The position numbers and the translations under genes are program-made. Under the pieces are notes generated by a model that did not search any database, was not told the origin of the DNA, and saw only the letters and a program-made list of their open reading frames with translations. Shown one piece after another: positions 14,756 through 36,784 of a stretch of 64,000 nt of DNA; the stretch's first letter is position 1; each line of letters starts with the position of its first letter. Location of the stretch: the NCBI GenBank assembly GCA_964598025.1, contig CAZRAU010000001.1:56201-120200 (forward strand), read 5' to 3'. The DNA is from an uncultured bacterium. GTDB lineage: Bacteria > Arandabacterota > Arandabacteria > Arandabacterales > Arandabacteraceae.

Positions 14756-14854
14756 GCTATGATCCGGCCGATCCGACTCCCCTTTTGTGCCTCGCCAACC
14801 TATCCATATTAGGACGCCGGGCAGCTCGTGACAGCCCGGGATGGAAGGAGCCCA

Positions 14855-18900: not shown

Positions 18901-19926
18901 GACGCGAACACGGCCTTCTTCCTGGCACCCGGGACCGTCGCGCCCCCCGGCTGGACTTCCGTGCTTGAGGCGGCCCTGACGGCTGACGGCGTGGGCTGTG
19001 TTCTGGCTGCGTCCAACAAGGGTCTTGGCGAGGACCTTGTAGAGCCGGGCTATCGCAAGCTCGGCAAGCCATTTGTCAGGTTTGCCGCCAAGCATGCGAA
19101 GGCATGGCAAGGCCGGATACAGAGTATAGAGATGGGCTTCCCGGCCGCCATGGCCATAAGCAAGGACGTCCTTCTCAAGTACGGTCTGAGCGATGAATTC
19201 AACACACCGGGAATCCTCCTCGATCTCCAACGGAAGCTGGCGGACGCCGGGCTGCGCATCGTCTGTGCGAAGGAGACCTACGTCCATGCCGCCGACTTCG
19301 CGACCGAGGAAGCCGCGAAGGAGATGGAGGCCGTCCTCCAGCTCCTCGCAGCCAGGAAGTGCTTGGGCGAGGAGAAGTCAGTGCAGTCGCTGGGGGCCCT
19401 TGACCAGGCTCTGGCCGCCAAAGACGACTATACGGAAGCCCTCTACGAGAGAGGTCTCGTGTTTTCGCTCATGGGCAAGAAGCGACAGGCGATCGCCGAT
19501 TTCGAGAGGGTGCTTGATCTCAAGCCGTCCGATTCGCGGGCCGTAAACAATCTTGGATGCCTCCACTTCGAGATGGGAGACCAGGCCGAAGGCGAACGCA
19601 GGTTCCGGGACGCGATCGGGGCCGATGCGGGCAACTGGGAAGCCAGGAAGAACCTGGCGGATCTGCTGCTCTGCCGGGGCGACTCGGACGAGGCCATCGA
19701 GATATATGCTTCACTGATTCAAGAACATGGAGAGCGGCCAGGAGTCTATGCATCCGTAGGGGAGGTCTTCGCCAACCTCGGAGATCTGGAATCCGCCGGG
19801 CACCTGTTTGAAATGGCGCTCCGGATCTTCCCTGAAGACGAAGCTGCCCGGCGAGGCCTCCTTGCGGTCCAATCGGCGATGTCGACCACGAACCAAGCAG
19901 GAAGGAGCCAAATCGATGAGGGATAA
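15964..19926 (+). CDS. 1321-aa multidomain glycosyltransferase: GT2 + GT-B (GT4-like) + GT2 + uncharacterised region + C-terminal TPR repeats
   Basis: ATGA start/stop overlap with the methyltransferase. GT2 module 1 (SILALNN...DTDLCFRARKAGW) covers about 15.97-16.63 kb. A GT-B/GT4-like module (VGNYKHDPNEDAV...GLKGKIGEALAAGIPIVTT) covers about 16.75-17.9 kb. GT2 module 2 (VGIVIPVFNN...FEDDDICLRARLAGY) covers about 18.0-18.6 kb. TPR repeats (AEYNERGLVF...) cover about 19.35-19.9 kb. Confidence 0.8.
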   Translation: MKQPTVISILALNNLALTKQCLESIFENTTAPYEVCVVNQASADGTREYLDSLEDKIDAVHLPKNVGFIGGNNLVMDRYPDRDIVLLNNDTLVEKGWLKALEGCAYSDSSIGIVGAKLVYPGGKLQEAGGEIFKDGSGRNIGKNDDPERHIYNVCRDVDYCSGACLFVKRVVLDKVGYLDEIFSPAYWEDTDLCFRARKAGWRVVYEPDSKVMHLEGATAGLPGRKSLSESLQQRNKPKFMARWGEELMSHRSNVFEVRPRYGKEQILVVLPFLPMYDRAAGEKRWFHTLKILTRHFDVTFLARNGAGQLKYINDLEKMGITVFHTDQSRLEPMGCSEKGPLRIDFPLLLKSNDFKAVIVGFYHMAHQYYRDIREHSPRSVLIVDSYDLCWIRQRRKADLTGEAGDIWEALEVKRREIAMYGKTDMVLTVTEEDRLRLLQELPGLSVGISTDIHPLTGECREGRGRDLVFVGNYKHDPNEDAVLHFAREIFPLIRDAIPGIRLYVVGNSPTPPVEALACDDIIVTGFVPEVTPYLLESRVFVVPLRYGAGLKGKIGEALAAGIPIVTTSIGAEGMNLLHRKNAMIGDTPEDFARCVVEAYTDDALWDTLSSEGKRLADESYSVRAVEKHWLEIIDFIRDGRKTREKPDRGAGTAGKRAGSPGRGFKRTTAPPEIVPDVGIVIPVFNNLDLTRTCWTSVRKSTGIPHQVVIVDNASTEDVAYEADQNNLEVIRNETNRGFAYACNQGIMHTHGDFVVILNNDTIVTPGWLERLMWHMGDDPDMGILGVTTNYAGSEQQIPATYETERQLYDFSEEIYRKNRHRRKETGKVVAVCVVLRRKMLRDVGLFDTRFGLGNFEDDDICLRARLAGYKVAFARDVFIHHAGSKTFQVLKLDYGRLMEENRRRYEAKWAPLAREFCRCDAGDMAETGPERSHLTCMDARQNECADHPEGGPIISLADIQISADETLAGHLVNRVRGLDANTAFFLAPGTVAPPGWTSVLEAALTADGVGCVLAASNKGLGEDLVEPGYRKLGKPFVRFAAKHAKAWQGRIQSIEMGFPAAMAISKDVLLKYGLSDEFNTPGILLDLQRKLADAGLRIVCAKETYVHAADFATEEAAKEMEAVLQLLAARKCLGEEKSVQSLGALDQALAAKDDYTEALYERGLVFSLMGKKRQAIADFERVLDLKPSDSRAVNNLGCLHFEMGDQAEGERRFRDAIGADAGNWEARKNLADLLLCRGDSDEAIEIYASLIQEHGERPGVYASVGEVFANLGDLESAGHLFEMALRIFPEDEAARRGLLAVQSAMSTTNQAGRSQIDEG

Positions 19927-21376
19927 GCCGACGCTTGCCGTGTGTATGATCGCTCGGAACGAGGGTAAGAGGCTTCCTACCGCCATAGACAGTGTCAGGA
20001 GGATAGCCGACCAGGTGATAGTCGTTGATACGGGTTCCACGGACGACACGATTGAGGCGGCGCGCTCCCTCGGGGCGGAAGTGGTCGAGTATGCCTGGAA
20101 AGACGACTTCGCCGATGCACGGAACAGGTCACTCGCAGAGGCCCGATGTGATTGGATCCTGTGTCTGGATGCCGACGAGTGGGTTGCACCGGAAAGCGAA
20201 TCCAAGGTGATTGAAGCCCTGTCGGAGGGGGCCGGCGCCTATATGGTACGAATCGAAAGCCGGGTCGATTCTACGGCAGGCAAGGTGTTCGTCAATTTCT
20301 TCCCCAGGCTTTTCCGTAACCTGGAAGGGGTCCGGTTCGAGGGGAAGGTCCATGAACAGGTCGCTCCATCACTCGAAGGCCTTGGTGTGTCGATTGAAGT
20401 CTCCGACATACTGATCAAGCATACGGGCTATGCCCTCTCGGACTCAGACCTTAAGGCGAAGGCCCGTAGAAACGCCGACCTGCTCCTGAAGGATGTGGAG
20501 GAGCATGCCGATGACGCGCTAGCCCTCTTCCACCTGGGCGAAGCCTTCTCAATGCTCGAGCACTTCGAGGAGGCAGTGGAATTTTATGACAGAGCGCTCG
20601 CGGCGGGTGGCCTCGACGGCATAGTCCGCGGTGCCCTGCTCCAGAACAAGGGCACGGCACTTGTGAAGCTCAAGGACTACGAAAAGGCGATCGTCTCGCT
20701 AAGGCAAGCCCGCGAGGTCGATCCCGGGTTGCTCACGGTCCACCTGGTTTTGGCATCGGCCCACTATGGCATGGGGAAGTTCAAGCGGGCGGAACAGGAG
20801 GTGATCTCCTATATCTCCATATGCCGTGAGATAGGACGGGTTAAGCGGATAACCCTCGGGCATGACCCCGACATTCCCAATGCCCTGGTCATGCTCGCCA
20901 GGTGCCGGCTTGCGCTGGGCCGGCTCGACGAGGCAAGGAAGGCTCTCGAGGATGCACTGAGCCTGGATGGGTCTAAGGGTGATGCCCACATGCTCCTGGG
21001 AAGGATAGCTTTTGAGGAGCTCAGGTTCGGCCGGGCGGCGGCCCACTTCGAGAAGGCGGTTGACGCCTATCCCGGCGGAGAGAGGCTTTACTTCGAGCTG
21101 GCCCGGGCATATGTGGCCTGTGGTTCCAACGACAAAGCGATCCGGACGCTGGACAGCGCGATAGAGAACGGAATGGAAGGGGCCGATCTTCTGAGGTGTC
21201 TCGGGGTCCTCAAGATAAAGCAGAAGGATTTCGAGGGTGCGATAGATGCCTATCGCCGGACGCTGGACGTCGATCCCGGCGATGCCGACTCGCGGAAGAA
21301 GCTCGCCGGACTGTATCATGCCCTGGGCAAGACCAATCTTGCGGAAGCAACCCTTGCCGGATGGTCGGGCCGGTGA
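19916..21376 (+). CDS. GT2-family glycosyltransferase with C-terminal TPR domain (GmaR-like architecture; putative flagellin glycosyltransferase)
   Basis: LAVCMIARNEGKRLP...VIVVDTGSTDDT...DWILCLDADE is GT2 with a DxD-like motif. The C-terminal ~250 aa are TPR repeats. An RBS AGGAAGGAG precedes it, and it overlaps the upstream gene by 11 nt. Confidence 0.8.
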   Translation: MRDKPTLAVCMIARNEGKRLPTAIDSVRRIADQVIVVDTGSTDDTIEAARSLGAEVVEYAWKDDFADARNRSLAEARCDWILCLDADEWVAPESESKVIEALSEGAGAYMVRIESRVDSTAGKVFVNFFPRLFRNLEGVRFEGKVHEQVAPSLEGLGVSIEVSDILIKHTGYALSDSDLKAKARRNADLLLKDVEEHADDALALFHLGEAFSMLEHFEEAVEFYDRALAAGGLDGIVRGALLQNKGTALVKLKDYEKAIVSLRQAREVDPGLLTVHLVLASAHYGMGKFKRAEQEVISYISICREIGRVKRITLGHDPDIPNALVMLARCRLALGRLDEARKALEDALSLDGSKGDAHMLLGRIAFEELRFGRAAAHFEKAVDAYPGGERLYFELARAYVACGSNDKAIRTLDSAIENGMEGADLLRCLGVLKIKQKDFEGAIDAYRRTLDVDPGDADSRKKLAGLYHALGKTNLAEATLAGWSGR

Positions 21377-21515
21377 AAACGGTCCGTCTGCCGCGCTATG
21401 CTTGTCCCCCGCCTCGCCATTCACCTGTGTAGTGGGAGCGCTACGAAACACAACGGTCTCTAAGTAGATGCAAGTCTCTGCAAGAGGAGGGTTTGGGGCA
21501 GGCTGGTTTTGCGGC

Positions 21516-21542
21516 TAAAGTAATTCGCAAACCTTGCGATAG
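21516..21542 (+). promoter_or_regulatory. sigma-28 (FliA)-type promoter candidate for the flagellin gene
   Basis: TAAAGT, then a 15-nt spacer, then GCGATAGG. The consensus is TAAA-N15-GCCGATAA. It lies about 215 nt upstream of the flagellin ATG, and the leader is rich in GGA/AGGAAG motifs. Confidence 0.5.
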
Positions 21543-21757
21543 GTCATACGGGAGTTGGATTAAAGGCCGTATAAGGGATCATCCTATGTGCAAAGAACCG
21601 TGGATCGAAAGGAGGTGGGTTCTTTACTTGCCTGCACCTACCTGGTGCGTATTCCGTCCATCTTCAGGAAGTAGAACCTTGGTGCCGGTCATGAAGGCCG
21701 GATCCCAAGCAGGCAAGGAAGCCCCGAGGTCAAGACGATCAAAAGGGGGTTGTTGAA

Positions 21758-22600
21758 ATGGCGAATGCCGACCTCAGTCGTATTAACGCAAACATTGGTG
21801 CGTTGAACGCTCTTAACGCGCTCCGCGACGTCAATCAGAAACTCGCCCTGCATCAGCTCAGGCTGGCGACGGGCAAGAAGATCAACTCGGCCGGCGATGA
21901 TCCGGCGGGTATGACCTTCGCAAAGAAGCTGGATTCCAGGGCGAGAGGCCTTGCCGTCGCCCGCGACAATATCGGCGACGTTCAGAATCTTATGGCGGTT
22001 GCCGAGGGCGGTATCGAGAACATCAGTGAGATTCTGATCACCATGAAGGAGAAGATCCTTCAGGCCGCCAACGATACCATCGGTACCTCCGAAAGAGCTG
22101 CCGTCGAGAGCCAGCTGGATGACCTGGCCGCCGAGATCGACCAGATCGTAGCCTCCACCACATGGGGCGGCGTTACGCTTCTGGATTCCACATACACCGG
22201 CAAGCAGTTCCAGGTCGGCGAGCAGACTACCGATACGCTGAGTTTCTCAATAAGCCAGAATCATCAGGCTGCTTCTCTCAGTGTTGCGGATGCGAATCTG
22301 GACGTGACTACCAGTGCGGCGGCATCGACTTCGCTGAGCAATGTCAATACGGCCATCGACACCATAAACACGAGCCTTCAGTCGATAGGTTCGGTGTCTT
22401 CACGGATGTCGATCAAAGAGGCCAATATCTCTGTCGCCATCACCAACGTGACCGCATCCTATAGCCGTATTTTCAATGCGGACATGGCGAGCGAACAGCT
22501 CGAGGCCACAAAGTACCTGGTCCTGCAGCAGACGGCTACGGCCATGCTTGCTCAGGCCAACCTTGCTCCTCAGAGCATACTGCAACTGATCACCGGTTAA
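21758..22600 (+). CDS. fliC: flagellin (short, 280 aa; Ser/Thr-rich central region)
   Basis: The N-terminus LRLATGKKINSAGDDPAGMTFAKKL and C-terminus EATKYLVLQQTATAMLAQANLAPQSILQLI are flagellin N and C helices. An SD AAAGGGGG precedes it. Confidence 0.9.
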   Translation: MANADLSRINANIGALNALNALRDVNQKLALHQLRLATGKKINSAGDDPAGMTFAKKLDSRARGLAVARDNIGDVQNLMAVAEGGIENISEILITMKEKILQAANDTIGTSERAAVESQLDDLAAEIDQIVASTTWGGVTLLDSTYTGKQFQVGEQTTDTLSFSISQNHQAASLSVADANLDVTTSAAASTSLSNVNTAIDTINTSLQSIGSVSSRMSIKEANISVAITNVTASYSRIFNADMASEQLEATKYLVLQQTATAMLAQANLAPQSILQLITG

Positions 22601-24883: not shown

Positions 24884-25102
24884 TTGATACTGCTGACTCA
24901 ATTCAATGGCGATGAAGTCTATGTCAATCCGAACCTGATCGAGACCGTGGAGAGCAAGCCCGATACCGTGATCAGGCTTGCCAACGGCAGAAAGATCATA
25001 GTGCGGGAGTCGCGGGAAGATGTTGTTCGGAAGTTCACCGAATTCGCCGCCAAGGTCTCCGGATCTATTATCCAGGATAGCGAGGAACTCCAGTGGACGT
25101 AA
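24884..25102 (+). CDS. flbD: flagellar protein FlbD
   Basis: MILLTQFNGDEVYVNPNLIETVESKPDTVIRLANGRKIIVRES is FlbD-like. It lies immediately upstream of motA and overlaps it. Confidence 0.75.
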   Translation: MILLTQFNGDEVYVNPNLIETVESKPDTVIRLANGRKIIVRESREDVVRKFTEFAAKVSGSIIQDSEELQWT

Positions 25103-25875
25103 CAACGATCGTCGGAATAGTAGTGGGCGGCGGATTGCTCTTCCTGGCCATCTTCCAGGGTGGTGGTGTAGGAGTGTTCATCAACATGCCGGCGCTTATG
25201 ATCACGGCCGGGGGTACGCTTGCCGCAACGCTCATAAACTACCCTCTCGGTGATATGCTCAGAGTGGTCAAGGTCATCAAGAACGCCTTCCTTCACAAGA
25301 TGGAATCGCCCGAGCAGATGATAAAGGCACTGGTGACCTTCGCCGAGAAAGCCCGGCGTGAGGGGCTCCTGGCCCTGGAAAAGGATGCGTCGGCCATCGA
25401 AGATCCCTTTATGAAGGGAGGCCTTGAGATGGCAATAGACGGCCTCGATCCGGATCTGGTGACATCCATGCTCAGGATGGAGCTCACCTTCGTGAGCGAG
25501 AGGCACAAACGCGGTCAGGGCATGTTCAAGGCGATGGGCAAGTTCGCGCCCGCCTTCGGCATGATCGGCACCCTGATCGGGCTCATACAGATGTTGAGAT
25601 CCATCGAGGACCCATCGGCCATCGGCCCCGGCATGGCAGTGGCACTGATAACGACCTTCTACGGCACTCTGATCGCCAACCTGGTATGCATACCGCTGGC
25701 AGGCAAACTGGAGACGATATCCGAGCATGAAATCATGGTGAAGGAGCTCGTGATCGAGGGCATCAGATCGATCCAGTCGGGGGACAGCCCAAGGGTGGTG
25801 GACCGGAAGCTCAAATCGTTCCTTGCCCCAAAGATGAGGGAGAATCTTGAGACGATCAAAGCCGGAGCAAGCTGA
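25093..25875 (+). CDS. motA: flagellar stator protein MotA
   Basis: Four TM helices are predicted, and GMIGTLIGLIQML is a MotA/TolQ/ExbB motif. It has a GTG start. Confidence 0.9.
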   Translation: MDVTTIVGIVVGGGLLFLAIFQGGGVGVFINMPALMITAGGTLAATLINYPLGDMLRVVKVIKNAFLHKMESPEQMIKALVTFAEKARREGLLALEKDASAIEDPFMKGGLEMAIDGLDPDLVTSMLRMELTFVSERHKRGQGMFKAMGKFAPAFGMIGTLIGLIQMLRSIEDPSAIGPGMAVALITTFYGTLIANLVCIPLAGKLETISEHEIMVKELVIEGIRSIQSGDSPRVVDRKLKSFLAPKMRENLETIKAGAS

Positions 25876-26624
25876 TGCCGGTCACGATAAAGAAGAGGGA
25901 AGTGGAGGAAGGGGCCAGCTGGCTCACCACTTTCGGTGATATGATCACCCTGCTTTTCACGTTTTTCGTACTCGTCTATTCCTTCTGCTCATTCAACCCG
26001 GGCGAGTGGGAGACGACTTCAGGCTCCATAAAGGGGGCGTTGGGCGTCATACCCGGTACCAAAGGTGACCGCGTGATCCCCGGGGGCGGTTCCGGGGGCT
26101 TCCCCGGGCATCTCGGCGTCGTGCCGCTCTTCGGCGAGCCCTTTGTGTTCGAAGAGTCCTCACCCAAGAGACCGGCTGAGGAGTTTACCAGAATCCGCGA
26201 GAAGCTGGCGGAAACCGAGGGAATCGAGGTCGAGGAGACTGAGACGGGCTATCTGTTCAGGATTGCCACGCCCGTTCTGTTCGAAGTCGGGAGCGCGGAG
26301 ACCAAGCCTGCCGCGAGACCCTTCCTCAGGGCCATCGCGAAGGCTACATACCAGGCACCGGGCACCATTATTGTGACGGGACACACCTGCGATCTTCCCA
26401 TATCGACTGCGGACTTCGAGTCCAACTGGGAACTGTCTGCGCGCAGGGCCACACACGTCTTACGCGTAATCATGGCCGATGCCAGTCCCGATACCAGGTT
26501 CGTCGCACTGGCACGAGGACAGTACGACCCTCTGATACCCAACCGGAACGAGCTGTGCCGGGCCAGAAACAGAAGGGTGGAGATCAGATTCGACCTGGAG
26601 GGAGGCCTGCCGTTTGAGCCCTGA
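25875..26624 (+). CDS. motB: flagellar stator protein MotB (OmpA-like)
   Basis: The TM segment WLTTFGDMITLLFTFFVLV carries the conserved proton-binding Asp. The C-terminal OmpA peptidoglycan-binding domain is present (NWELSARRA...NRRVEI). Confidence 0.85.
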   Translation: MPVTIKKREVEEGASWLTTFGDMITLLFTFFVLVYSFCSFNPGEWETTSGSIKGALGVIPGTKGDRVIPGGGSGGFPGHLGVVPLFGEPFVFEESSPKRPAEEFTRIREKLAETEGIEVEETETGYLFRIATPVLFEVGSAETKPAARPFLRAIAKATYQAPGTIIVTGHTCDLPISTADFESNWELSARRATHVLRVIMADASPDTRFVALARGQYDPLIPNRNELCRARNRRVEIRFDLEGGLPFEP

Positions 26625-27378
26625 GACCTGGCCCAAAAGACCGGATAAGCCTGAGGAGGCCGACGACAGTTTCATGGTATCGTATTCGGCCCTTATGATC
26701 CTGCTCCTTACGTTCATGATACTGCTGGTGACACTTGCGAATTTCAAGGAGCCGCGCTTCAGAAAGGCCATAGGGTCGGTCAGGGGGGCCTTTTCGTTTC
26801 TGCCCTATGCCGGCGGCGACGAGATTATGGCGCACGGATCGCCCGGCTTCTTGCCCGAGAAAGTCCTGGCCAGGGCCACCACGGATGAACAGGACGAGGG
26901 AGCCTACGAACGTGTCGTAGAGGAGATGATGGCGAAGGCGAAGTCGCCGGACCTGGCGGGTTTCGAGGTGGAGGTGAGTAATGATGGTCTGGCGATCAAG
27001 TTGTCTGATTCACTGATGTTCGAGCAAGGTCGGGCGGAGCTAAGGCCCGGAATCCTCTCTCTCATGGATCTTCTGGCTGAGGTCGTGAATGCCAGACCAG
27101 GGAGAGTTTCCATCATTGGAAACACGTGCGATCTTCCAATATCGAACAAGGAATTCCCATCAAACTGGGAGCTTTCGATCATGAGGGCCGTCAATGTGCT
27201 TCATCATCTTGAGGCGCGAGGAGTAAGTCCGGAATCCCTGTATGCCTATGGGGTTGCCGATCAGAGACCCATTGTTCCGAATGAGGACGAGGCGTCAAGA
27301 CGAGAGAACCGCCGGGTAGAGGTGTACATTGCAAATCGTGGCGGGCAGGTTGATACGGCAAGCGAGGTGCTACATTGA
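26614..27378 (+). CDS. MotB-like paralog (OmpA-like) lacking the conserved TM aspartate
   Basis: Its architecture matches MotB (TM, then an OmpA domain with NWELSIMRA...NRRVEV). The TM reads FMVSYSALMILLLTFMILLV, and aligned by eye it places Ala where MotB has Asp. Confidence 0.75.
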   Translation: MSPETWPKRPDKPEEADDSFMVSYSALMILLLTFMILLVTLANFKEPRFRKAIGSVRGAFSFLPYAGGDEIMAHGSPGFLPEKVLARATTDEQDEGAYERVVEEMMAKAKSPDLAGFEVEVSNDGLAIKLSDSLMFEQGRAELRPGILSLMDLLAEVVNARPGRVSIIGNTCDLPISNKEFPSNWELSIMRAVNVLHHLEARGVSPESLYAYGVADQRPIVPNEDEASRRENRRVEVYIANRGGQVDTASEVLH

Positions 27379-28952
27379 ACACGAGGGCAGCTGATGTGAA
27401 TGCGGGTCAGCCCATTGAACGTACAAACAACAAAGACAGGGATGAAACCACAAGATCGTTGGCTCGTGCGCTATCCGGCGCACTGGATGCCCGAAATCCG
27501 AGGGCGAGAGGGCACTCACACCGGGTTGCCATGTATGCGATGGCGATAATGAACGAGCTGGAGCATGATGGTGATCCGGCATATCAGGATCTGCGTGACC
27601 GCGTGAGGATAGCCGCCCTTCTCCATGACGTCGGCAAGATCGGAATCCCCGACAGTGTGCTCCAGCGGGAGAGCGAGGTTGGTGACGATGGGAGCCGGCT
27701 TCTGAGACAGCATCCGGTCCTTGGGGCAGAGATCATGAGCTCATGTGAGGGCCTCAAAGAGGTGGTTCCGGGGGTTCTATATCACCATGAGCGGGTGGAC
27801 GGATCGGGATATCCTTTCGGGTTGACGGGGAGGAGCATTCCCCCTTCGGCCAGGGTGATCGCGCTTGCCGATGTTTTCGATGCCTTGACCACCGACTACG
27901 GGGTTGAGGAAGTATGTTCACACGAGGAAGCCCTGTGCCGGCTGAAAGGCGATCTGTCCTCAGGATTCGATCCGGACGTACTTGAGGCGCTCTCCAGGGC
28001 ACACCACAGCGGGGCTCTCCGGCATGTACGCCTGCCACATAGGCAAGAGCCGTCGGATGAGGCCGTCGATACGGTTGTGGAGAACGTATACGGCCGTCAG
28101 CTGACGTCGGTTCCGTCGCTGCCGGAGGCAATCTATAAGGTGAACTCACTTCTGGAAAGTCAGGAAGCGTCCCTGAAGGAGATAGCCACGATTCTGTCGA
28201 GCGATTCAGGGCTCGCAAGCAGGGTACTTAAGCTTGTGAATTCAGCATACTACGGGTTGCCCCGGATGGTCTCGACGATCCCCCTGGCAACGACCATTCT
28301 GGGGATCAGGGCGATCAAGAACCAGGTTGTGAACATCGCTTATGCGGATGTCATGAAAGAACTTGGTGGACGTCATGCGGAATACCGGATTCTCTGGACG
28401 CACGCCCTCAAGACAGCCGCCTGGGCGCGCATGATCTGCTCGGAGATCTCCGACATCGATCCCGAGGAGGCCTTCACGGCCGGGCTCATACATGATGTAG
28501 GACGGGCGCTGTGCCTCAGGCTCAGACCGGATACCTATGGGGGGCTCGTTACCCAGGCGGAGGTCAGCGGGAGACCATTAATCGCGATCGAAGAAGAATT
28601 GATAGGGTTCGACCACATGAGCATGGGTGGATGGATGGCAGCGAAATGGATGCTGCCGGGGTCACTGGTCAACTCGATACGGTGGCATCATGACCCGGAA
28701 CGTGTGGCGGACCAGGGGCGGGAGGCATACGAGCTCATACGCATAATCCACATAGCCGACATCGCGGCCAGGGCTTGCGAGGCGGTGGAGGTGAACTTCG
28801 TACCGTTTGTTTTGCGGGAGATAAGTCCGAGGGTGCTCAGGGAGCTTGGGAGCGCATATCTGGTGGATCTTGAACACTTCAAGGAAGCGGCCGAAGAGGC
28901 CGAAAAACAGTTAGAGGAGACTTTTGCCGAAGCCGCCGTCCATGTTTCCTGA
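27375..28952 (+). CDS. HD-GYP domain (c-di-GMP phosphodiesterase family) fused to C-terminal HDOD domain
   Basis: The HD region has HSHRV...ALLHDVGKIGIP...YHHERVDGSGYPFGL (HD-GYP). The C-terminal half reads SLPEAIYKVNSLLES...LASRVLKLVNSAYYG...LIHDVGRA (HDOD). It has a TTG start overlapping the motB' stop. Confidence 0.8.
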   Translation: MNTRAADVNAGQPIERTNNKDRDETTRSLARALSGALDARNPRARGHSHRVAMYAMAIMNELEHDGDPAYQDLRDRVRIAALLHDVGKIGIPDSVLQRESEVGDDGSRLLRQHPVLGAEIMSSCEGLKEVVPGVLYHHERVDGSGYPFGLTGRSIPPSARVIALADVFDALTTDYGVEEVCSHEEALCRLKGDLSSGFDPDVLEALSRAHHSGALRHVRLPHRQEPSDEAVDTVVENVYGRQLTSVPSLPEAIYKVNSLLESQEASLKEIATILSSDSGLASRVLKLVNSAYYGLPRMVSTIPLATTILGIRAIKNQVVNIAYADVMKELGGRHAEYRILWTHALKTAAWARMICSEISDIDPEEAFTAGLIHDVGRALCLRLRPDTYGGLVTQAEVSGRPLIAIEEELIGFDHMSMGGWMAAKWMLPGSLVNSIRWHHDPERVADQGREAYELIRIIHIADIAARACEAVEVNFVPFVLREISPRVLRELGSAYLVDLEHFKEAAEEAEKQLEETFAEAAVHVS

Positions 28953-29025: not shown

Positions 29026-29904
29026 ATGGGAAACCATCTAGATGCGTTCGTGCAGTATCCCATATACCCTTCACTGACCTGGCTGGAGAAGGCTCTTCTC
29101 CGCACCAGAATGCCCTGGCCGGCCAGGTGTCCGGTCTGCGGTTCTACGACCCTTATTACCGATGTCGGCCGGAGCCTGCGAGAATCATGCAAGTGTCTGC
29201 GGTGCAAGTCCACCAACAGGCAGCGCCAGATAGCCTATGTGGTCTGTGGGGCTGTGAGCAGAATGACCGGCACCGAGATCGCATCCTTGAAGGAAGTGGC
29301 CGAACAGCAAGACTTGGTCATCTACAATACCGAAGCCGGCCGGCAAGTACACGATCGGCTGGCGGCAATGCCCGGTTACCTGTGCAGCGAGTACTTCGGA
29401 GATGCCTGTACGAGCGGGGATGTGATAGGAGGGAGGATGCACCAGGATCTCATGGCACTCTCATTTGATGACAGGAGCATAGACCTGGTCATATCATCCG
29501 ATGTGTTGGAGCATATGCCCGACCCTTACCGCGCCCACAGGGAAATCCATCGCGTGCTGAAGCCCGGAGGAACCCATGTCTTCACCGTCCCCTTCTACCA
29601 GACCGAATTCGAAGATGAGGACAGAACCATTACCGACATAAGAGGGAACACGGTTTTCATCAAAGACCCCATCTATCACGGCGATCCCATGAGATCGGAG
29701 GGGGCACTGGTTCATAAGATCTTCTCACTGGAGATGCTGGTGAAGCTGGGCAAGATCGGTTTCCGCACCAACATGTACAAGATCTATAAACCGTCCTCAG
29801 GCATTCTCGGGCCCAATGCCCTGGTGTTCGAGGCTGTCGCGCAGGAGGCGGTAACCCAGCGCCGAGAGGCACTGTCGCAAGGCAAAGTGGGAGCCGCAGC
29901 ATGA
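29026..29904 (+). CDS. SAM-dependent methyltransferase (Methyltransf_11-like) with N-terminal CxxC...CxxC zinc ribbon
   Basis: ARCPVCGS...CKCLRCKS forms the ribbon. IDLVISSDVLEHMPDPYRAHREIHRVLKPGGTHVF is a class I MTase motif. The ATG at 29026 follows GGAAGGAG. Confidence 0.7.
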   Translation: MGNHLDAFVQYPIYPSLTWLEKALLRTRMPWPARCPVCGSTTLITDVGRSLRESCKCLRCKSTNRQRQIAYVVCGAVSRMTGTEIASLKEVAEQQDLVIYNTEAGRQVHDRLAAMPGYLCSEYFGDACTSGDVIGGRMHQDLMALSFDDRSIDLVISSDVLEHMPDPYRAHREIHRVLKPGGTHVFTVPFYQTEFEDEDRTITDIRGNTVFIKDPIYHGDPMRSEGALVHKIFSLEMLVKLGKIGFRTNMYKIYKPSSGILGPNALVFEAVAQEAVTQRREALSQGKVGAAA

Positions 29905-31028
29905 CGATACCCGGGAGTCTCAACGGTATGCCGGAGCCAAGGAAGCCGGGGCCCGGCGAGGGGCAGCGTGGTGTGGGTACGCGTACCGCGCTGGATGCCG
30001 AAGAGCCCTTGCTGCAGGGTCGGCCGAGCCGCGAGGACCTGCTCGACACACTGCGAACCCGCTGCAAGAAAGGCGCGCGGGGCAGGCCTCAGAAACTGGA
30101 TCTCAGCGGCCTGGATTTCTCCGGTGAGGATCTTTCCGGCCTGGACCTTTCCGGCTATGACTTCAGCCGGGCGAACCTGGCGCGGGTCGATCTCAGCGCG
30201 TCGAATCTTGGGTGGGCGAAGCTCCGGGAGGCCAATCTTCACAGGGGGACGCTGACCGATTGCGAGCTGGTCGGGGCTGATCTGCAAGGTGCGAATCTCA
30301 GTGAGTGTTCGGCCGAAAGGTCGGGGCTGGGTGCCACCGATCTGACCGGTGCCGGACTGATCAGTGCGAACCTGCGTCACGCCACGCTTAGCGAAGCAAA
30401 CATGCGCGGCGCTGATCTGCGGGCGGCGAATCTTCAAGGCTGCAATATTCGGAGTGCGGACCTAACCAACGCGAACTGCACGCGGGCCGAACTCCAGGGG
30501 GCCGATCTTCAGGAGAGCAATGTTCTGGGCACCAGCTTTGAAGTGGCTAACCTGCAGAGGGCCCGGCTGCTCGGCATAAAGAACTATCTTAAGGCTAATT
30601 GGATCGGCACGGACATCCGTGAAGTCGATCTCCGTGGTGCCTATCTGATCCGGCGCTTCATATCGGACGAGAACTACCTCTATGAATTTCGAACCCGGAG
30701 CAAGTACCACAAGGTCCTCTACCGCCTCTGGTGGTTGACTTCGGATTGCGGCCGGAGCCTCTCTCGCTGGACCTTCTGGGTGGCGGCGGTGACGGTGGTC
30801 TTCGCGATTCTGTATAGTACCACCGATGTGGACTACGGCGCCCATCGCACCGTCTTCTCTCCTCTCTATTACAGTGTAGTGACTCTAACGACACTCGGCT
30901 ACGGTGACGTAGTCCCGGCTTCGGGTGGGGCCCAGGCGATCGCAGCCATACAGGCTGTGCTTGGCTATGTGGGCCTGGGGGGATTCCTGAGCATATTGGC
31001 GAACAAGATGGCCCGAAGGGCCGACTGA
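29901..31028 (+). CDS. pentapeptide-repeat domain fused to a 2-TM K+-channel-type pore (TTLGYGD selectivity filter)
   Basis: About 200 aa of A(D/N)LxG pentapeptide repeats (ANLARVDLSASNLGWAKLREANLHRGTL...). Then TM1, a pore helix SVVTLTTLGYGDVVP and TM2. ATGA overlap with the upstream MTase. Confidence 0.75.
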   Translation: MTIPGSLNGMPEPRKPGPGEGQRGVGTRTALDAEEPLLQGRPSREDLLDTLRTRCKKGARGRPQKLDLSGLDFSGEDLSGLDLSGYDFSRANLARVDLSASNLGWAKLREANLHRGTLTDCELVGADLQGANLSECSAERSGLGATDLTGAGLISANLRHATLSEANMRGADLRAANLQGCNIRSADLTNANCTRAELQGADLQESNVLGTSFEVANLQRARLLGIKNYLKANWIGTDIREVDLRGAYLIRRFISDENYLYEFRTRSKYHKVLYRLWWLTSDCGRSLSRWTFWVAAVTVVFAILYSTTDVDYGAHRTVFSPLYYSVVTLTTLGYGDVVPASGGAQAIAAIQAVLGYVGLGGFLSILANKMARRAD

Positions 31029-31050: not shown

Positions 31051-31899
31051 ATGTCATTGCTACGATTAGGCAGGAAGAGCGATCCGAAGGGCAAGCTGAA
31101 GAAGGTCCTCGGTGAATACAATCTGCCTTCATTCCCGGGCGCCGTCATGCAAGTGCTTCAGACAATTCGCGACCCCCGGTCCTCAGCGTCTTCGGTTGCC
31201 GATGTCCTCGCAGTCGATCCCGGCCTCTCGGTGCGGGTGCTGCGTGTGGCCAATTCACCGGTGTTCTCCCCGGTTCGAAAGGTCGAGAACCTTGCCCAGG
31301 CGGTAGCTCTTGTCGGACTGACGGAGCTGGAGTCGCTGGTCCTTTCGATAAGCGTCAGGGGAAATCTGCCTCGCGACTCAGCAGAAGGCTACGACTTCGC
31401 GAGATTCTGGCGGGCTTCAGCGAGGCGAGGTTTCGTGGCCCGGGCGCTGGCGGAAATCCTGTGCCCGGCCCGGGAGTCCGAGAGTTTCACGGCGGGCCTC
31501 CTACAGGATATGGCCCTTCCTTTCCTTGCCCATCAGAGATCCAAGGAATACGGTCCGGTCCTTCACCAGTGGCACACCACCGATGTGCTCCTGCATGAGC
31601 TGGAGCGCGAGGTATTCGGCTGGGACCACGCCGAGGTTGGGGCCTGGATCTGTGACGAGTGGAATCTTCCCGAGAGTATAGTCTCTGCCATAGGCAGCCA
31701 CCATCCCGGTGGCGTCCGCAACGGGTGTCCGGTATCGGTGGCTCTAGCGGCCTACCTGCGCGAGGCTGAGGACAGGACCGGCGTGGATAGCCTTATCAAG
31801 ATGGCTGCGACCGAGTATCAGATCAGCGCTGAAAGGGCCGGTGAGATCGTCGAATCGGCGTTCCGGCAAGCGGAAGAATTCACCCAACTCCTCGGTTGA
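31051..31899 (+). CDS. HDOD domain protein
   Basis: PSFPGAVMQVLQTIRDP...SVRVLRVANSPVFS...GLLQDMA...HAEVGAWI are HDOD hallmarks. 282 aa. Confidence 0.8.
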   Translation: MSLLRLGRKSDPKGKLKKVLGEYNLPSFPGAVMQVLQTIRDPRSSASSVADVLAVDPGLSVRVLRVANSPVFSPVRKVENLAQAVALVGLTELESLVLSISVRGNLPRDSAEGYDFARFWRASARRGFVARALAEILCPARESESFTAGLLQDMALPFLAHQRSKEYGPVLHQWHTTDVLLHELEREVFGWDHAEVGAWICDEWNLPESIVSAIGSHHPGGVRNGCPVSVALAAYLREAEDRTGVDSLIKMAATEYQISAERAGEIVESAFRQAEEFTQLLG

Positions 31900-31910: not shown

Positions 31911-32768
31911 CTAAAACAGTTTCTTCACCTCGGCCACTTCGTCTTCGAGGTCAACCATCAGGCCGGCAATCTCGATGTCGCTGAGATTGAGGTATTCGAT
32001 CGACCGTTGGCTCAGGAGATCCATCTCTGTATCGGGCCTAAGATGGAACCCCATCTTACACGATATCGCGTCCGCCGCTTGTATCTGCATTGTCAGCGGC
32101 TGGTCGGGATCAATCTCCTCATCGTGATGGTGCAGCGCCGCATAGCAGATGGGTTCCGGCACACTCCATGTGGTCAGTGTTCTATGACCGAGCTCGGTAT
32201 GGAGAACGGCCATCAGTTCGTCCAGCACCACGGGCGTTATCTCCGCCCCATCATGACCCTCAACATAATCCACGGCGCGGAGTACCAGGAGTTTGCCCGT
32301 GTCATGCAGCAGACCTGCCACAAACGCCTCCTCCGGCTCCAGGCCGGTGAGCCCCGCTACATGTTTTGATGCCATCGCCGTTGTGACGGCGTGGCTCCAG
32401 AGGGTCTCGAGAAGTCGGGACTTCTCGGGATCATCCGATTGAAAGTGCCCACTGTGTGCAAGTGCCGTGACCGCCGATGTCACTTGCCTGAAACCAAGCC
32501 TTGCAATTGCCAGGGACAGATCGGAAACCGGGTTCAGACCGCCGAAGGCGGCGGAGTTTGCCCACCTCAGAAGTGTCGCCGCGATGGCAGGATCGGTCCC
32601 CACGAGTGCCGCAATCCTCTTGGAGCTGGTGCTGCCCTGGTCCCTGAGGAGCTCCATGAGGCGATTCACGAGATTGGGAAGTGGCGGAAGAGCGATCGTC
32701 CCGGCATCCACAACTGCGCGGATGCTGTCTGCAATGGATTGTGTTGTCAATGCTGTTGTCTTGTTCAC
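31911..32768 (-). CDS. HDOD domain protein
   Basis: LPPLPNLVNRLMELLRD...AATLLRWANSAAFG...GLLHDTGKLL are HDOD hallmarks. It overlaps the upstream ATPase stop by 4 nt. Confidence 0.8.
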   Translation of the reverse strand: MNKTTALTTQSIADSIRAVVDAGTIALPPLPNLVNRLMELLRDQGSTSSKRIAALVGTDPAIAATLLRWANSAAFGGLNPVSDLSLAIARLGFRQVTSAVTALAHSGHFQSDDPEKSRLLETLWSHAVTTAMASKHVAGLTGLEPEEAFVAGLLHDTGKLLVLRAVDYVEGHDGAEITPVVLDELMAVLHTELGHRTLTTWSVPEPICYAALHHHDEEIDPDQPLTMQIQAADAISCKMGFHLRPDTEMDLLSQRSIEYLNLSDIEIAGLMVDLEDEVAEVKKLF

Positions 32769-34732
32769 CGTGCCCTCCTTAGTGCAGCGGTTTCCCTGAT
32801 GGTTGTCATGTCTCTGAGCTCGGAGTCGCGGGGAGCGTTGTCTGCGATCTCAGAAAGGGTGGTCTGTCCGGCGGCGACTTTTAGAAGGCCGTCCTCTTCA
32901 AGGGTAAGGAACCCCGGGATCATCTTCGCGATACGCCTGAGATCTCTGGATGAAGCCTTCGCTAGAATGGCGTCACGGAAATCGTCATCCAAGAGCAGGA
33001 CCTCATGTATGCCCATACGTCCGAGGTAGCCGGTGCCGCCACATTCGGGGCAACCGGCGCCCGCAAGCAGGGGCACGCCTCTCAGATAATCGCGGTCAAG
33101 TCCGAGGAAACGGAGGTCCTTCTTGGAGGGTTCGACCGGCCTTCGGCAGTTCTCGCAGATGCGCCTGACCAGACGCTGGGCAATGACACATGTCAATGTC
33201 GATGCTACCAGGAAAGGTTCGACCTTCATCTCGAGAAGACGCACCACCGTGGCCACCCCATCATCGGTGTGAAATGTCGAGAACACCTTGTGGCCGGTCA
33301 GGGCTGCCTCCGTGGCAAGCCCCGCCGTCACACTGTCACGGATCTCGCCGACAACGATCACATCGGGATCCTGACGGACAATGGACTTAAGGGAGTCCGC
33401 GAAGGTCGGGCCGCTCTTCTCATTCACCGAACACTGAGTAGTACCGTCGAGAACATATTCGACGGGATTCTCGCAGGATATGATCTTGAGGCTGTCATCT
33501 CTGGTAAAATCCACGAACGAATACATGGTGGTCGTCTTGCCGCTCCCGGTCGGTCCGGTGATCAGTACGAGACCGCTGGAACTTCTGAGCACGACCTCCC
33601 TGAGCAAACCCAGTATTCTGGGTTCGAAGCCCAGGGCATCAAGCGGAACAAGCCCCCGCCGGCGATCGAGCAGCCGCAGTACAAGCGTCTCCCCGAATAC
33701 CGATGCATAGGAGCTCACCCTTATGTCCACGCCCCTGCCGCCGGCATCCACGAAGAACCTGCCATCCTGATGCAGCCGCCGCTCGGCTATATCCATCTTC
33801 GCAAGCACTTTCACCCGGGAGAGTATGCGCGGGGCGAAGTCGTTCGGAAGATCGGTTAGGTGACGCAAGACGCCATCCACCCTTACCCTTGCTCGTACCT
33901 TGTTCTCAAGGGGCTCGATATGGAGATCGCTGGCGCCGAGGTCTATAGCTTGTGACAGAACATGATCCACAATTGCGGTAGCCCCTTCCCCTGCTTCTTC
34001 GTCCTGCGGCATCTCCTGGATGTCCTTATACTGGAGGACCGTCGACATCTCCACGCCACTGCAATCTCTGAAGCGCTCCAGGGTGCGGAGGGCTTCCTCG
34101 ATCTTGGCGGTAACCGCGGCGCAGGGCCTTATGGGCTGGCCGTAGGTTCGCTCCAGCTCGTCGATCAGAGCGGTATTGAGAGGGTCCGACATAACGACAT
34201 TCAGATGGCCTTCGACGACCCTGAGTGGGAGGGCCTGCTGGCGGATAAGATACGGAATGGAGACCTGCGACAGCGTTGCCGTGTCGACCAGACTCACATC
34301 CGGCTCGATGTACGGGATGTCGTCCTTCGCGCAGAGTGCCCTGAGGTATTGCTCTTCTGTAATCAAGCCCTCTTTAAGGAGCACCTCGCGTTCGCCCAGA
34401 TTGGGACTCTTCGACTTGGCTGCGTGATATCGGGCCAACCCCTCCGCATCGAGAAGGCCATCCTCGAAGAGAATGCGCGCGGTGCTGAGTCTGGACCTGT
34501 ATAGGTGCATGACCCGATCGTGCTCCGACCTGGTGAGCTGTCCGAGGTCCACGAGCACGTTCCCTACCGATCTGGCCTCCTGGAGACGACCCGCCACGCG
34601 ACGGGCGCGTTTCAGCTGCTCCTCGGTGACCAGGTTCTCCGCAAGCAGCAGATTCTCAAACTCGACAGGATGGTGCTGTTCCTCGGGGGGCCGTTCGGCC
34701 CTGGTTACAGTGGTGCTATCTGATGGATTCAT
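32765..34732 (-). CDS. GspE/PilB/MshE-family secretion ATPase with two N-terminal MshEN-type (c-di-GMP-binding) motifs
   Basis: Walker A LITGPTGSGKTT and a tetracysteine CENC...CPEC are present. The N-terminus has GNVLVDLGQLTRSEHDRVMHL and GEREVLLKEGLITEEQYLRAL, resembling the MshEN RLGxxLLxxGxITxxQLxxAL motif. The ORF-track start at 35197 gives a 155-aa Arg/Pro-rich extension, which I rejected. The ATG at 34732 follows GGGGAGGA. Confidence 0.85.
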   Translation of the reverse strand: MNPSDSTTVTRAERPPEEQHHPVEFENLLLAENLVTEEQLKRARRVAGRLQEARSVGNVLVDLGQLTRSEHDRVMHLYRSRLSTARILFEDGLLDAEGLARYHAAKSKSPNLGEREVLLKEGLITEEQYLRALCAKDDIPYIEPDVSLVDTATLSQVSIPYLIRQQALPLRVVEGHLNVVMSDPLNTALIDELERTYGQPIRPCAAVTAKIEEALRTLERFRDCSGVEMSTVLQYKDIQEMPQDEEAGEGATAIVDHVLSQAIDLGASDLHIEPLENKVRARVRVDGVLRHLTDLPNDFAPRILSRVKVLAKMDIAERRLHQDGRFFVDAGGRGVDIRVSSYASVFGETLVLRLLDRRRGLVPLDALGFEPRILGLLREVVLRSSSGLVLITGPTGSGKTTTMYSFVDFTRDDSLKIISCENPVEYVLDGTTQCSVNEKSGPTFADSLKSIVRQDPDVIVVGEIRDSVTAGLATEAALTGHKVFSTFHTDDGVATVVRLLEMKVEPFLVASTLTCVIAQRLVRRICENCRRPVEPSKKDLRFLGLDRDYLRGVPLLAGAGCPECGGTGYLGRMGIHEVLLLDDDFRDAILAKASSRDLRRIAKMIPGFLTLEEDGLLKVAAGQTTLSEIADNAPRDSELRDMTTIRETAALRRAR

Positions 34733-35014
34733 AGTGCGTCCTCCCCACCAGTATCTTCGGCAAGAACCGGGGTTGTCTTGAGCACCGGGAAGGCGCCCGG
34801 GTCGCCTGGGGAACCGCCTATGGCCCGCGACCAGGGCGTCTCGCCGGGGTGGGGTGCCCGGATGTTCCGCGTCGCATAACTTGACAAATCCCCGCACAGT
34901 GCTATCCTTCCCTATAGACTGCGATATGGCCATCAGGGATGTTGGGCGCATGCATGGGATGGTATGCACCAATAGACGGGTCGACAGGTTCAATAGCGCC
35001 TTGAGATCCGGATT

Positions 35015-36784
35015 GTGGGCGGAGCGCCTGTGAAGAGTGAGAGACGACGTCGGGTTACCACGCGGGAGCTTATGGCCGAGCTCCGTCGGAGCGAGGCTCA
35101 GTACAGATCTACGATCGACTCCATGACCGATGCCCTTCACGTTGTGGATCGGGATCTCAGGATCGTTCTCATGAACAGGGCCTTCCTCGATTGGCACGAG
35201 AGGCTCGGTCTCACAGGAGACGCAGTCGGCAAGTTATTGAATGAAGTCTATGATTTCCTCCCCCCAAGTGTGGAAGAAGAGTACCGGAAGGTCTTCAAGG
35301 CCGGCGAGTTGTTGACCACCGAAGAGCTCACGACGATCGGCGACAGAGAGATCACTACCGAAACCAGGAAGATCCCGATCTGTGAAAGAGGGAAGGTTGT
35401 CAAAGTCATAACCATAGTGCGTGATATCACCGAGCGTAAGTGCATGGAGAAGGCCCTGAGGCTGAGTGAGGCGAAATTCAAGACCCTCGCGGAACAGTCC
35501 CCCAACATGATTTTCATGCACCGGATGGGCAAGATCGTATATGTGAACAAGAAGTGCGCGGAGATAATGGGATACACAAGGGAAGAATTCTATGCGCCGG
35601 GATTCGACTTCTTGTGCGTCGCGGCTCCGGAGTCCATCACGGATATAGCGGGCGGGTACTCGGCCTACCTGGAGGGGCGCGGGTATCACTCACATGAGGC
35701 TACGCTTATTACGAAGAGCGGGAGGAGAATCGACTGTATTGTGGCGTGGTCCGCGGTCGACTACGGTGACGGCAAAGCCATGTTGGGGGTTGTGACGGAC
35801 ATCACCGGCCGGAAAGACGCGGAGAGGTCGCTCAGGATCAGTGAAGAGAAATACCGGTCCTTTGTCGAAAACTTCCATGGCATTGCATACCGCGGGGGTT
35901 CGGATGGGGCCCCCATATTCTTCCATGGGGATGTTCGGAGAATAACGGGATATGCCGAGGAGGAATTCCTCCGGGGCATGCCGGCCTGGACGGATATTGT
36001 TCTGCCGGAAGACAGGCAAGAACCCCACGGGGGGCCATTGATGGAAAACCCCAGGGGCGGTGTGCAGCCGGCTGAACGTGAATACAGGATACGAAGAAGA
36101 GACGGTGAGATCCGATGGATCCATCAGTCCTTGCGGCCCGTCCGTGATGAATCGGGTGCGGCTATGTATCTTCAAGGAGCCCTTTACGATGTCACGGCCC
36201 GGAGAGTTGCTGAAGACAAGAGCGCGCGTGAGCGTAGCGCCTTCGGGAGCATTGTGGATGCTGCAACCACGAGCAAAGGGCCGCCCGAGGTATGCGAGAA
36301 GGTTTTGTGCGGATTGATCGCGACTCTGGGTTTCGACTGCGGGGTAGTACGCCTGTATGACCGGGAGACTCGAACGCTCAATCTCGTATGTACACACGGC
36401 TTCACTCCCAGCGAAGTTGACAGGTATCTACATGATCAGCATATCGACGATTCCCGTGGTATCGCCGCCCTTGTAGGGCGGACGCTGAAGGCGGTGTGGG
36501 CGCCGGATGTGTCGCATAGTGAGGAAATGAAAGAATACAGGCACCGGTGCTCGGAGGTGCGTGTGAGGTCCATGATAGGGTGGCCGCTGGTTTCCTCGGA
36601 TCGCACTTTGCTGGGGGTAATGCATCTGATGGGCCGGACCCCGAGAGACATCCCGGAAGAAGACCGCGTCTTTTTCCGGACGGTCGGTGACATGTTCGTG
36701 GTTGTGCTGGAGTGGAAACAAGCAGAGCAATCCATCAAGAGTAGTGAGGCAAGGTACAGGAGCCATTTCGAGAACTCTCCATAG
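35015..36784 (+). CDS. cytoplasmic PAS-PAS-PAS-GAF sensor protein ending inside the N-cap of a further PAS domain (no output domain; possibly truncated)
   Basis: Repeated PAS N-caps (SEAQYRSTIDSMTDAL, SEAKFKTLAEQSPNMIF, SEEKYRSFVENFHGI) and a GAF-like segment are present. The protein ends ...SEARYRSHFENSP and then a stop. It has a GTG start, and the start position is uncertain. Confidence 0.65.
   Translation: MGGAPVKSERRRRVTTRELMAELRRSEAQYRSTIDSMTDALHVVDRDLRIVLMNRAFLDWHERLGLTGDAVGKLLNEVYDFLPPSVEEEYRKVFKAGELLTTEELTTIGDREITTETRKIPICERGKVVKVITIVRDITERKCMEKALRLSEAKFKTLAEQSPNMIFMHRMGKIVYVNKKCAEIMGYTREEFYAPGFDFLCVAAPESITDIAGGYSAYLEGRGYHSHEATLITKSGRRIDCIVAWSAVDYGDGKAMLGVVTDITGRKDAERSLRISEEKYRSFVENFHGIAYRGGSDGAPIFFHGDVRRITGYAEEEFLRGMPAWTDIVLPEDRQEPHGGPLMENPRGGVQPAEREYRIRRRDGEIRWIHQSLRPVRDESGAAMYLQGALYDVTARRVAEDKSARERSAFGSIVDAATTSKGPPEVCEKVLCGLIATLGFDCGVVRLYDRETRTLNLVCTHGFTPSEVDRYLHDQHIDDSRGIAALVGRTLKAVWAPDVSHSEEMKEYRHRCSEVRVRSMIGWPLVSSDRTLLGVMHLMGRTPRDIPEEDRVFFRTVGDMFVVVLEWKQAEQSIKSSEARYRSHFENSP

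Follow-up and report, generated by a model that had tools for sequence, protein, structure and literature searches.

A PilB/GspE-class ATPase paired with an HDOD protein behind a sigma-28-type promoter candidate in an uncultured member of the Arandabacterota

What task falls to a motor ATPase of the kind that extends type IV filaments when its gene lies beside flagellar genes and runs into a gene for an HDOD protein? This question is raised by a 64,000-nucleotide stretch of an uncultured bacterium of the Arandabacteraceae (assembly GCA_964598025.1, contig CAZRAU010000001.1, positions 56,201 to 120,200 of the forward strand), which we refer to as the window and whose own numbering is used throughout. 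An earlier note made from the sequence alone had described the ATPase as an orphan of the GspE/MshE type that receives cyclic di-GMP (c-di-GMP) through its N-terminus and works with a non-canonical partner. In the reading that we favour, and to which we give an even chance, it is a motor ATPase of the late flagellar regulon that is gated by its HDOD partner and probably drives a type IV filament encoded elsewhere. The two genes and the parts of the ATPase are as follows.

32765-34732, minus strand: GspE/PilB-class ATPase gene, 655 aa, with Pfam matches to T2SSE (E = 1e-102) and MshEN (E = 1e-15); Shine-Dalgarno (SD) sequence GGGGAGG at 34740-34746.
34499-34663, minus strand: additional four-helix bundle at the N-terminus (residues 24-78), formed by repeats A and B, its helices in hairpin pairs in the AlphaFold2 model.
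34058-34489, minus strand: MshEN-type domain in the strict sense (residues 82-225), formed by repeats C and D with the alpha/beta subdomain, from phmmer and Foldseek.
32846-33976, minus strand: T2SSE ATPase core (N2E plus C-terminal domain, residues 253-629), Pfam PF00437 E = 1e-102, Walker A at 33527-33556.
31911-32768, minus strand: HDOD/HD partner gene, 285 aa, GTG start at 32768-32766, SD sequence AAGGAGG at 32774-32780.

The TGA of the ATPase gene and the GTG start of the HDOD gene overlap as GTGA, with AAGGAGG seven bases upstream, an overlap that the earlier note had already recognized. The same order, with the HDOD gene directly downstream of the ATPase gene, occurs in every locus whose DNA runs past the ATPase gene (L001-L016, L018, L022, L024, L026, L027 and L030), and the junction is usually a 4-nt overlap accompanied by a GAGGAG SD sequence. 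Looking up the pair from the other side gave a matching picture: a 40%-identical HDOD homolog has a 666-aa ATPase with MshEN and T2SSE domains just upstream, and among 120 listed clusters of HDOD partners there are 32 whose longest contig is exactly equal in size to that of an ATPase cluster. Across 18 loci the HDOD partners are 34-88% identical to one another, and their pairwise identities follow those of the ATPases (r = 0.88). No HDOD gene was detectable downstream of the ATPase gene in L019, where the ATPase (P0197) has a canonical c-di-GMP motif, or in L031, where the ATPase is 30% identical. Our findings thus show that the ATPase and the HDOD protein form an obligate, translationally coupled and co-evolving pair in about 24 lineages. 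The suggestion of a non-canonical partner is thereby strongly supported, the pairing being more widespread than the window alone could reveal, and the promoter and motAB data described below tie the pair to motility.

The partner itself is a well-preserved member of its family, matching Pfam HDOD at E = 5e-43 (PF08668) and Pfam HD with 34.8 bits against a cut-off of 22. No substitution occurs at H126, H155, D156, H190 or H214 among the 15 aligned partners, of which 14 also have H215. These five histidines and one aspartate align with His and Asp residues of the Geobacter sulfurreducens HDOD structure 3HC1 (phmmer E = 2e-18) and equal in number the ligands of its di-iron site, which consists of five His and one Asp (PMC12075610). 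The partner keeps an intact di-metal HD pocket, and metal binding by it is predicted. A conserved acidic C-terminal stretch, VD-x-EDE, is a further feature of the protein.

The second line of evidence lies upstream of the operon, where we compared a promoter candidate with that of the flagellin gene in the same window.

34754-34782, minus strand: sigma-28 (FliA)-type promoter candidate, CTCAAG (34782-34777), 15-nt spacer, GCCGAAGA (34761-34754).
21515-22600, plus strand: flagellin gene, the promoter reference within the window, CTAAAG-N14-TGCGATAG at 21515-21542.

The candidate ends 22 nt before the ATG of the ATPase gene. When the upstream region of the window is aligned with those of L022, L023 and L024, a CTCAAG-N15-G(C/T)CGA(A/T) block is conserved and the flanks have diverged. 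A search for the two blocks CTCAAG and GCCGAT, with at most one mismatch per block, CGA fixed and a spacer of 14-15 nt, found the motif within 300 nt 5' of the ATPase gene in 21 of 24 lineages versus 4.6% of random 300-nt windows (binomial P ~1e-25, an upper bound on the significance since the lineages are related). The published sigma-28 consensus is TAAAGTTT-N11-GCCGATAA (PMC7286023), and the elements of Pseudomonas aeruginosa fliC are TCTAAAG and GCCGATAA (PMC12784957). A -35 element T(A/C)AAG and a -10 element GCCGATAA at the correct spacing, by which we define a sigma-28 promoter, are found upstream of the operon, and the flagellin promoter of the window agrees with the consensus. The same motif stands before motA in L004, L006, L011, L028 and L032 and before flgM in L006, and it is kept despite non-flagellar neighbours in L005, L007, L008, L016 and L026. 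A sigma-28-type promoter therefore precedes the ATPase-HDOD operon in most lineages. A generic scan for promoters and terminators in this analysis gave nothing beyond shuffle expectation. The -10 element GCCGAWRA taken alone was common in coding sequence and uninformative, becoming specific only as part of the two-block motif with fixed spacing, and a sigma-54 reading of a TGGCC...TCGCA block was rejected by eye, its GG-GC spacing being 3 nt too short.

These regulatory data bear directly on the main rival to our reading, which is direct action on the flagellar motor. In this explanation no pilus is involved, and the PilB-like hexamer with its HDOD protein would remodel, install or remove MotAB stators or modulate the motor. 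The promoter of the operon is like that of motA and flgM, motAB directly adjoins the pair in six lineages (window/L024, L004, L006, L011, L028 and L032) in three different arrangements, most loci have no pilus genes nearby, and effects on flagellar motility are on record for several HDOD proteins (PMC11004494, PMC11813219). Set against this are the pilin genes that follow the pair in L030 and L032 and the retention by the ATPase of all features of filament-extension enzymes, including the zinc tetracysteine motif. We know of no ATPase of this family that acts on flagella, and on balance we consider the explanation unlikely. A stronger formulation, in which the PilB/GspE-type ATPase and the HDOD metalloprotein would have been recruited as a new flagellar component, expressed with the stators from sigma-28 promoters and directed at MotAB or the motor and not at a pilus, seems to us quite improbable. 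If true, it would provide the first mechanistic role for HDOD domains, as the regulatory subunit of a motor ATPase.

The identity of the ATPase as such is clear from the protein family matches, and the open reading frame (ORF) that the earlier note had assigned to an ATPase of the GspE/MshE type does encode an enzyme of the GspE/PilB class. By its sequence the enzyme is a member of the T2SSE superfamily, in the extension-ATPase branch of the PilT/VirB11-like secretion ATPases, and its nearest solved structures are those of Geobacter PilB, Vibrio GspE and, as the best match, Thermus thermophilus PilF (E = 7e-112). No variation was seen among 114 homologs in Walker A, the Asp box, Walker B, the His box or the tetracysteine motif, and the ATPase is therefore under selection as an active enzyme. 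Full-length relatives numbered more than 100 in the homolog search, with identities of 50-82%; some have an N-terminal receiver domain, and those named by source come from metagenome-assembled genomes of Gemmatimonadales, Acidobacteriota and Candidatus Eisenbacteria. Scans of public genome and metagenome contigs with N-terminal profiles yielded only 9 and 10 loci, the peptide patterns being narrow. The start codon is taken to be the ATG at 34732, whose Met is also aligned as position 1 in 63 of 114 homologs. A longer ORF reaching a GTG at 35197 was rejected as the gene because of this alignment and the SD sequence before ATG 34732; homologs begin at or after that ATG, and both the SD sequence and the promoter would lie inside the extension. 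We also rejected an anti-phage defence system, for which the PADLOC output consisted of trivial P-loop and HD matches only.

The note's proposal that this ATPase senses c-di-GMP depends on its N-terminus, which is made up of four helical-hairpin repeats, A to D, followed by an alpha/beta subdomain. The turn glycines that anchor the repeats are residues 33, 64, 92 and 122, and the spacers between repeats are 7, 4 and 6 residues long. The AlphaFold2 model of residues 22-252 (22 homologs in the input) has a confidence, given as pLDDT, of 84 and comprises eight helices and the alpha/beta unit. Foldseek matched repeats C and D together with the alpha/beta unit to 8pe0 (PilF GSPII-B with c-di-GMP), 5htl (MshE) and 7lko (the Xanthomonas citri PilB-N/PilZ complex) with TM scores of 0.72-0.76 and a probability of 1.0 for 5htl and 8pe0. 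The phmmer alignment to PilF GSPII-B and to MshE 5HTL spans residues 82-193, in the same region as that found by Foldseek, and the Pfam MshEN match (E = 1e-15) covers residues 138-220. As modelled, the N-terminus of the ATPase is thus an MshEN fold preceded by an extra four-helix bundle. The region of repeats A and B carries two family signatures, ERARRIA and (R/K)PLGEVLVELGQL.

Within this architecture, the two peptides that the earlier note had quoted as a tandem pair of MshEN motifs are both present, at residues 57-77 and 113-133, but they are repeats B and D of the four, are not adjacent and hold none of the ligand-contact residues. The second peptide lies in the part that aligns with the MshE N-domain (repeats C and D), whereas the first, with repeats A and B, falls outside it. 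The published c-di-GMP motif is RLGxxL(L/V/I)xxG(L/V/I/F)(L/V/I)xxxxLxxxLxxQ (PMC5013675, PMC12943098), and the definition of a c-di-GMP-binding MshEN domain that we applied is two 24-residue motifs of the form RLGxx(L/V/I)(L/V/I)xxG(L/V/I)(L/V/I)xxxxLxxxLxxQ in tandem with a 5-residue spacer (Wang et al. 2016). Each of repeats A to D fits 5-6 of 11 motif positions, all of them structural positions of the hydrophobic/Gly skeleton. Position 1 is E, S, S and G and position 24 is A, Y, K and K in repeats A to D, respectively, leaving Arg1 and Gln24 absent; the MshE contacts used for this comparison were R9/Q32 and R38/Q61. In repeat C the RLG triplet has become S-x-A and in repeat D a conserved S-D-R, and both repeats have K/R at the place of Gln24. 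Neither a strict regular expression nor the relaxed one of Wang et al. matched the ATPase, and the relaxed form gave two matches in MshE. Among the 114 relatives the relaxed motif had no match in 111 and a match in 3, with a tandem pair in none, and not one relative has Arg1 and Gln24 together in any repeat. As a control, at least one relaxed match was found in 68 of 87 more distant relatives of the same four-repeat architecture. With the NCBIfam model NF053729, which describes a 53-residue c-di-GMP-binding motif and has a cut-off of 38 bits, the ATPase reached 25.5 bits, and no single stretch was significant by itself. Since the motif, the relaxed search and NF053729 all fail, the fold is MshEN but its c-di-GMP site is degenerate, and the c-di-GMP-binding residues, judged by their positions in the alignment, have been lost.

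That the ATPase would nonetheless be a direct c-di-GMP receptor through tandem MshEN motifs, as the note had it, is highly improbable. The MshEN-type fold, the gene for an HD-GYP phosphodiesterase 4 kb away and the resemblance of repeat B across the family to (R/K)-P-L-G-x-x-L-V-x-x-G can be cited for it, and are opposed by the motif and profile results just given. A precedent for such loss is Xanthomonas campestris XpsE/GspE (2D27), an MshEN-fold protein in which comparable substitutions at key positions abolished c-di-GMP binding (PMC5013675), although XpsE is encoded in a complete type II secretion system (T2SS) cluster and has no HDOD partner. A larger set of PilB-like ATPases (P0159-P0292) also has a four-repeat N-terminus and keeps the canonical RLG...Q in repeats A, C and D. 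For P0197 (L019), the sole member of that set whose context we examined, neither HDOD nor pil genes were found nearby.

Whether the ATPase serves a filament was approached through its gene neighbours. The 64-kb window was examined with Pfam (large ORFs), with phmmer on all ORFs (queries: Escherichia coli GspC/D/F/G/L/M/O, HofC and PpdD) and with a hidden Markov model (HMM) of the prepilin N-terminus, and none of these turned up a gene for a platform protein, pilin, secretin, GspL/M or prepilin peptidase. The E. coli Gsp queries had no homolog in the window or in L001-L019, and pilC/gspF or pilT is never adjacent to the ATPase gene in about 24 lineages. The note's statement that genes of this kind are missing nearby holds for the window. 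Two other loci give a different view.

L030:3429-6880: fimU-pilV-pilW-pilX-like minor-pilin operon, directly downstream of the ATPase-HDOD pair.
L032:6001-7053, also L033 and L034 (9 contigs): ATPase remnant-HDOD fusion, with a sigma-28-type motif still upstream.

In L030, which encodes a 40%-identical relative, the genes after the pair, all in its orientation, encode a GspH/FimU-like pilin, two more proteins of the prepilin type and a PilX_N protein. Decay of the ATPase in L032-L034 has left an 83-residue remnant (residues 267-349) fused in frame to an intact HDOD protein, and the fusion gene, which is divergent from motA-motB, is followed by genes for a PilA-like pilin and a LytTR/His_kinase pair (AlgR/FimS-like). 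The prepilin N-terminus HMM found no pilin at loci other than L030 and L032-L034. Because pilin genes lie downstream in L030 and L032, the lone ATPase in the window is no proof of a non-pilus role; the label of orphan thus describes the window and does not settle the function.

The same loci lend something to a further alternative, namely that the enzyme is an ordinary extension ATPase of a type IV pilus (T4P) or T2SS whose other genes are scattered, with the HDOD protein as an accessory regulator and the flagellar linkage reflecting general co-regulation of motility. Dispersal is typical of T4P genes, and accessory or second extension ATPases encoded at a distance from pil clusters exist, as with TfpB (PMC11656802). 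PilF, PilB and GspE being the best matches of known structure also fits, as does the minor-pilin operon after the pair in L030. This ATPase nevertheless scores well below the NCBIfam cut-offs for its class, with 467.6 bits against 630.25 for the GspE equivalog TIGR02533, 451 against 675.65 for the PilB equivalog TIGR02538 and 356 against 850 for the TfpB model NF053534. Its distinctive N-terminal architecture, its obligate pairing with HDOD and the distance it keeps from pilC/gspF and pilT likewise argue against an ordinary enzyme, and we hold this alternative to be improbable.

Under our favoured reading, the locus would be a two-gene operon in the late flagellar (sigma-28) regulon, with one gene for a catalytically intact hexameric motor ATPase of the PilB/GspE class and the other for an HDOD protein dedicated to it. 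The degenerate N-terminal domain would have been converted from a c-di-GMP sensor to a docking surface for HDOD, a docking that we propose because the N-terminal domain of Xanthomonas PilB docks PilZ. The HDOD protein would give the regulatory input through a metal-dependent ligand or hydrolysis step, and in one subclade a fused receiver domain would do so. Deployed in swimming cells, the motor would power a type IV filament, with the genes for pilins and platform at another place in the genome. In function the system would resemble MSHA pili in their work with the flagellum, but without direct binding of c-di-GMP by the ATPase.

Several points weigh against this reading. The P value for the promoter overstates independence, because the 24 lineages are related, and the promoter itself is a candidate defined by sequence match, with FliA dependence predicted. 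No platform, pilin or secretin gene was found near the pair in the window or in at least 18 other loci, and the link to a filament comes from two lineages because the other loci are without filament genes nearby. Physical contact between the ATPase and the HDOD protein is proposed from gene order and co-evolution only. The HDOD protein may have a role of its own, because L032 lost the ATPase and kept the HDOD, and non-canonical c-di-GMP binding may occur elsewhere in the ATPase or in the HDOD protein.

Several characterized systems come close to the module. Vibrio cholerae MshE (5HTL) is likewise a GspE/PilB-class ATPase with a four-helix-bundle plus alpha/beta MshEN fold (Foldseek TM 0.73-0.76), and as the extension ATPase of the MSHA pilus it works in flagellated swimming cells. 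MshE differs in binding c-di-GMP through two canonical RLG...Q motifs 5 residues apart, whereas the four repeats of the window ATPase are without Arg1/Gln24. The window ATPase also has one more bundle at its N-terminus and is always paired with HDOD, and there is no msh locus in its vicinity. T. thermophilus PilF (6F8L), the best solved match, also has multiple MshEN-type repeats before the ATPase, and residues 55-221 of the window ATPase align with its three-repeat GSPII-C region. PilF, unlike the window ATPase, has three full domains, GSPII-A/B/C, of which GSPII-B binds c-di-GMP (8PDK), and it has no HDOD partner. A parallel to the proposed docking is the X. citri PilB-PilZ-FimX system (7LKO), in which the MshEN-like N-domain of PilB (Foldseek TM 0.73-0.75) does no c-di-GMP sensing of its own and docks a small protein cofactor that relays signalling. 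There the cofactor is PilZ with FimX and is not likewise operonic with pilB, whereas here the candidate cofactor is HDOD and docking is putative. Acinetobacter baylyi TfpB is a PilB paralog that aids extension on a T4P machine encoded elsewhere (PMC11656802); it lacks an HDOD partner and a link to the flagellar regulon, and the window ATPase falls far short of its model, as given above. On the side of the partner, SadB, GsmR, Cj0248, PSPTO_4229 and PFL_0554/5871 have an HDOD domain and a repeated genetic link to flagellar motility, and for none of these, nor for 3HC1, has pairing with a PilB-like ATPase been reported. SadB differs further in missing most metal ligands and serving as a proteolysis adaptor (PMC12075610).

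In the literature searched we found no paper linking HDOD with PilB, GspE or MshE, none among the papers listed linking HDOD with FliA and no description of an ATPase-HDOD module. HDOD is a widespread signalling domain with, to our knowledge, no known biochemical function, and HDOD mutants in several bacteria have swimming or biofilm phenotypes (GsmR, Cj0248, SadB and PSPTO_4229). The obligate, co-evolving and translationally coupled pairing reported here offers a concrete and testable partner and output for HDOD, and connects the domain both with a motor enzyme and with the motility of swimming cells. HDOD would add a class to the cofactors of PilB, because the term is absent from a 2024 review of these cofactors. 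The N-terminus of the ATPase would be, in turn, a natural example of an MshEN domain that lost c-di-GMP binding and has apparently been repurposed, and membership of the sigma-28 regulon in Gemmatimonadota, in Acidobacteriota and in uncultured lineages related to these would point to an undescribed link between flagellar motility and a motor of the type IV filament kind.

The wider surroundings of the pair are flagellar on one side and housekeeping on the other, the genes downstream of the pair in the window being of the latter kind. Upstream, a plus-strand cluster holds flgF, flgG, flgA, flgH, flgI, flgJ, flgN, flgK, flgL and fliW, glycosyltransferase genes, the flagellin gene and fliD, and further on flbD, motA, motB, motB2, an HD-GYP-HDOD fusion, a methyltransferase gene, a pentapeptide/K-channel gene and a stand-alone HDOD gene. 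The cluster of motor and c-di-GMP genes that the note had seen is confirmed, with motA, motB, motB2 and the HD-GYP-HDOD gene 4-8 kb from the pair.

25093-27378, plus strand: stator genes motA, motB and a second motB paralog, motB2 (Pfam MotA_ExbB, MotB_plug and OmpA).
27375-28952, plus strand: HD-GYP (HHERVDGSGYP intact) fused to HDOD, directly after motB2 (Pfam HD_5 7e-31, HDOD 5e-59).
31051-31899, plus strand: second, stand-alone HDOD gene, convergent with the pair (Pfam HDOD E = 2e-54).

A single motA is followed by the two motB paralogs (25875-26624 and 26614-27378), and a small flbD-like ORF precedes it. Three HDOD-containing genes of the window lie within 5.5 kb, and beside the pair in L024, L009, L026, L015 and L029 there is likewise a second HDOD gene. 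Between the stator and HDOD genes, at 29901-31028 on the plus strand, a fusion of pentapeptide repeats with an Ion_trans_2 potassium channel is encoded, and the same fusion occupies the same place in L024. In L006, a receiver-fused ATPase gene overlaps the end of csrA in a flgM-flgN-flgK-flgL-fliW-csrA run.

Divergent from the ATPase gene, at 35015-36784 on the plus strand, is a PAS-PAS-PAS-GAF ORF that ends after 589 aa. It looks like a truncated sensor kinase because its L023 homolog, of about 1000 aa, continues through a further PAS to HisKA/HATPase, a part of which the window shows no trace. At the far end of the flagellar cluster, a 548-aa ORF immediately upstream of flgF (2472-4118, plus strand) has no Pfam match. 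The 8-kb block from fliW to flagellin (13469-21376, plus strand) contains genes for glycosyltransferases, methyltransferases and tetratricopeptide repeat proteins, including a 1363-aa protein with multiple glycosyltransferase domains, and may be a flagellin glycosylation island. Lastly, proteins encoded at 57432-58979 and 60384-63173, both on the plus strand, have C-terminal domains of the FlgD_ig / Por_Secre_tail type, one of them being a papain-family protease, which suggests an organism similar to those of the FCB group and sorting of the type IX secretion system kind.

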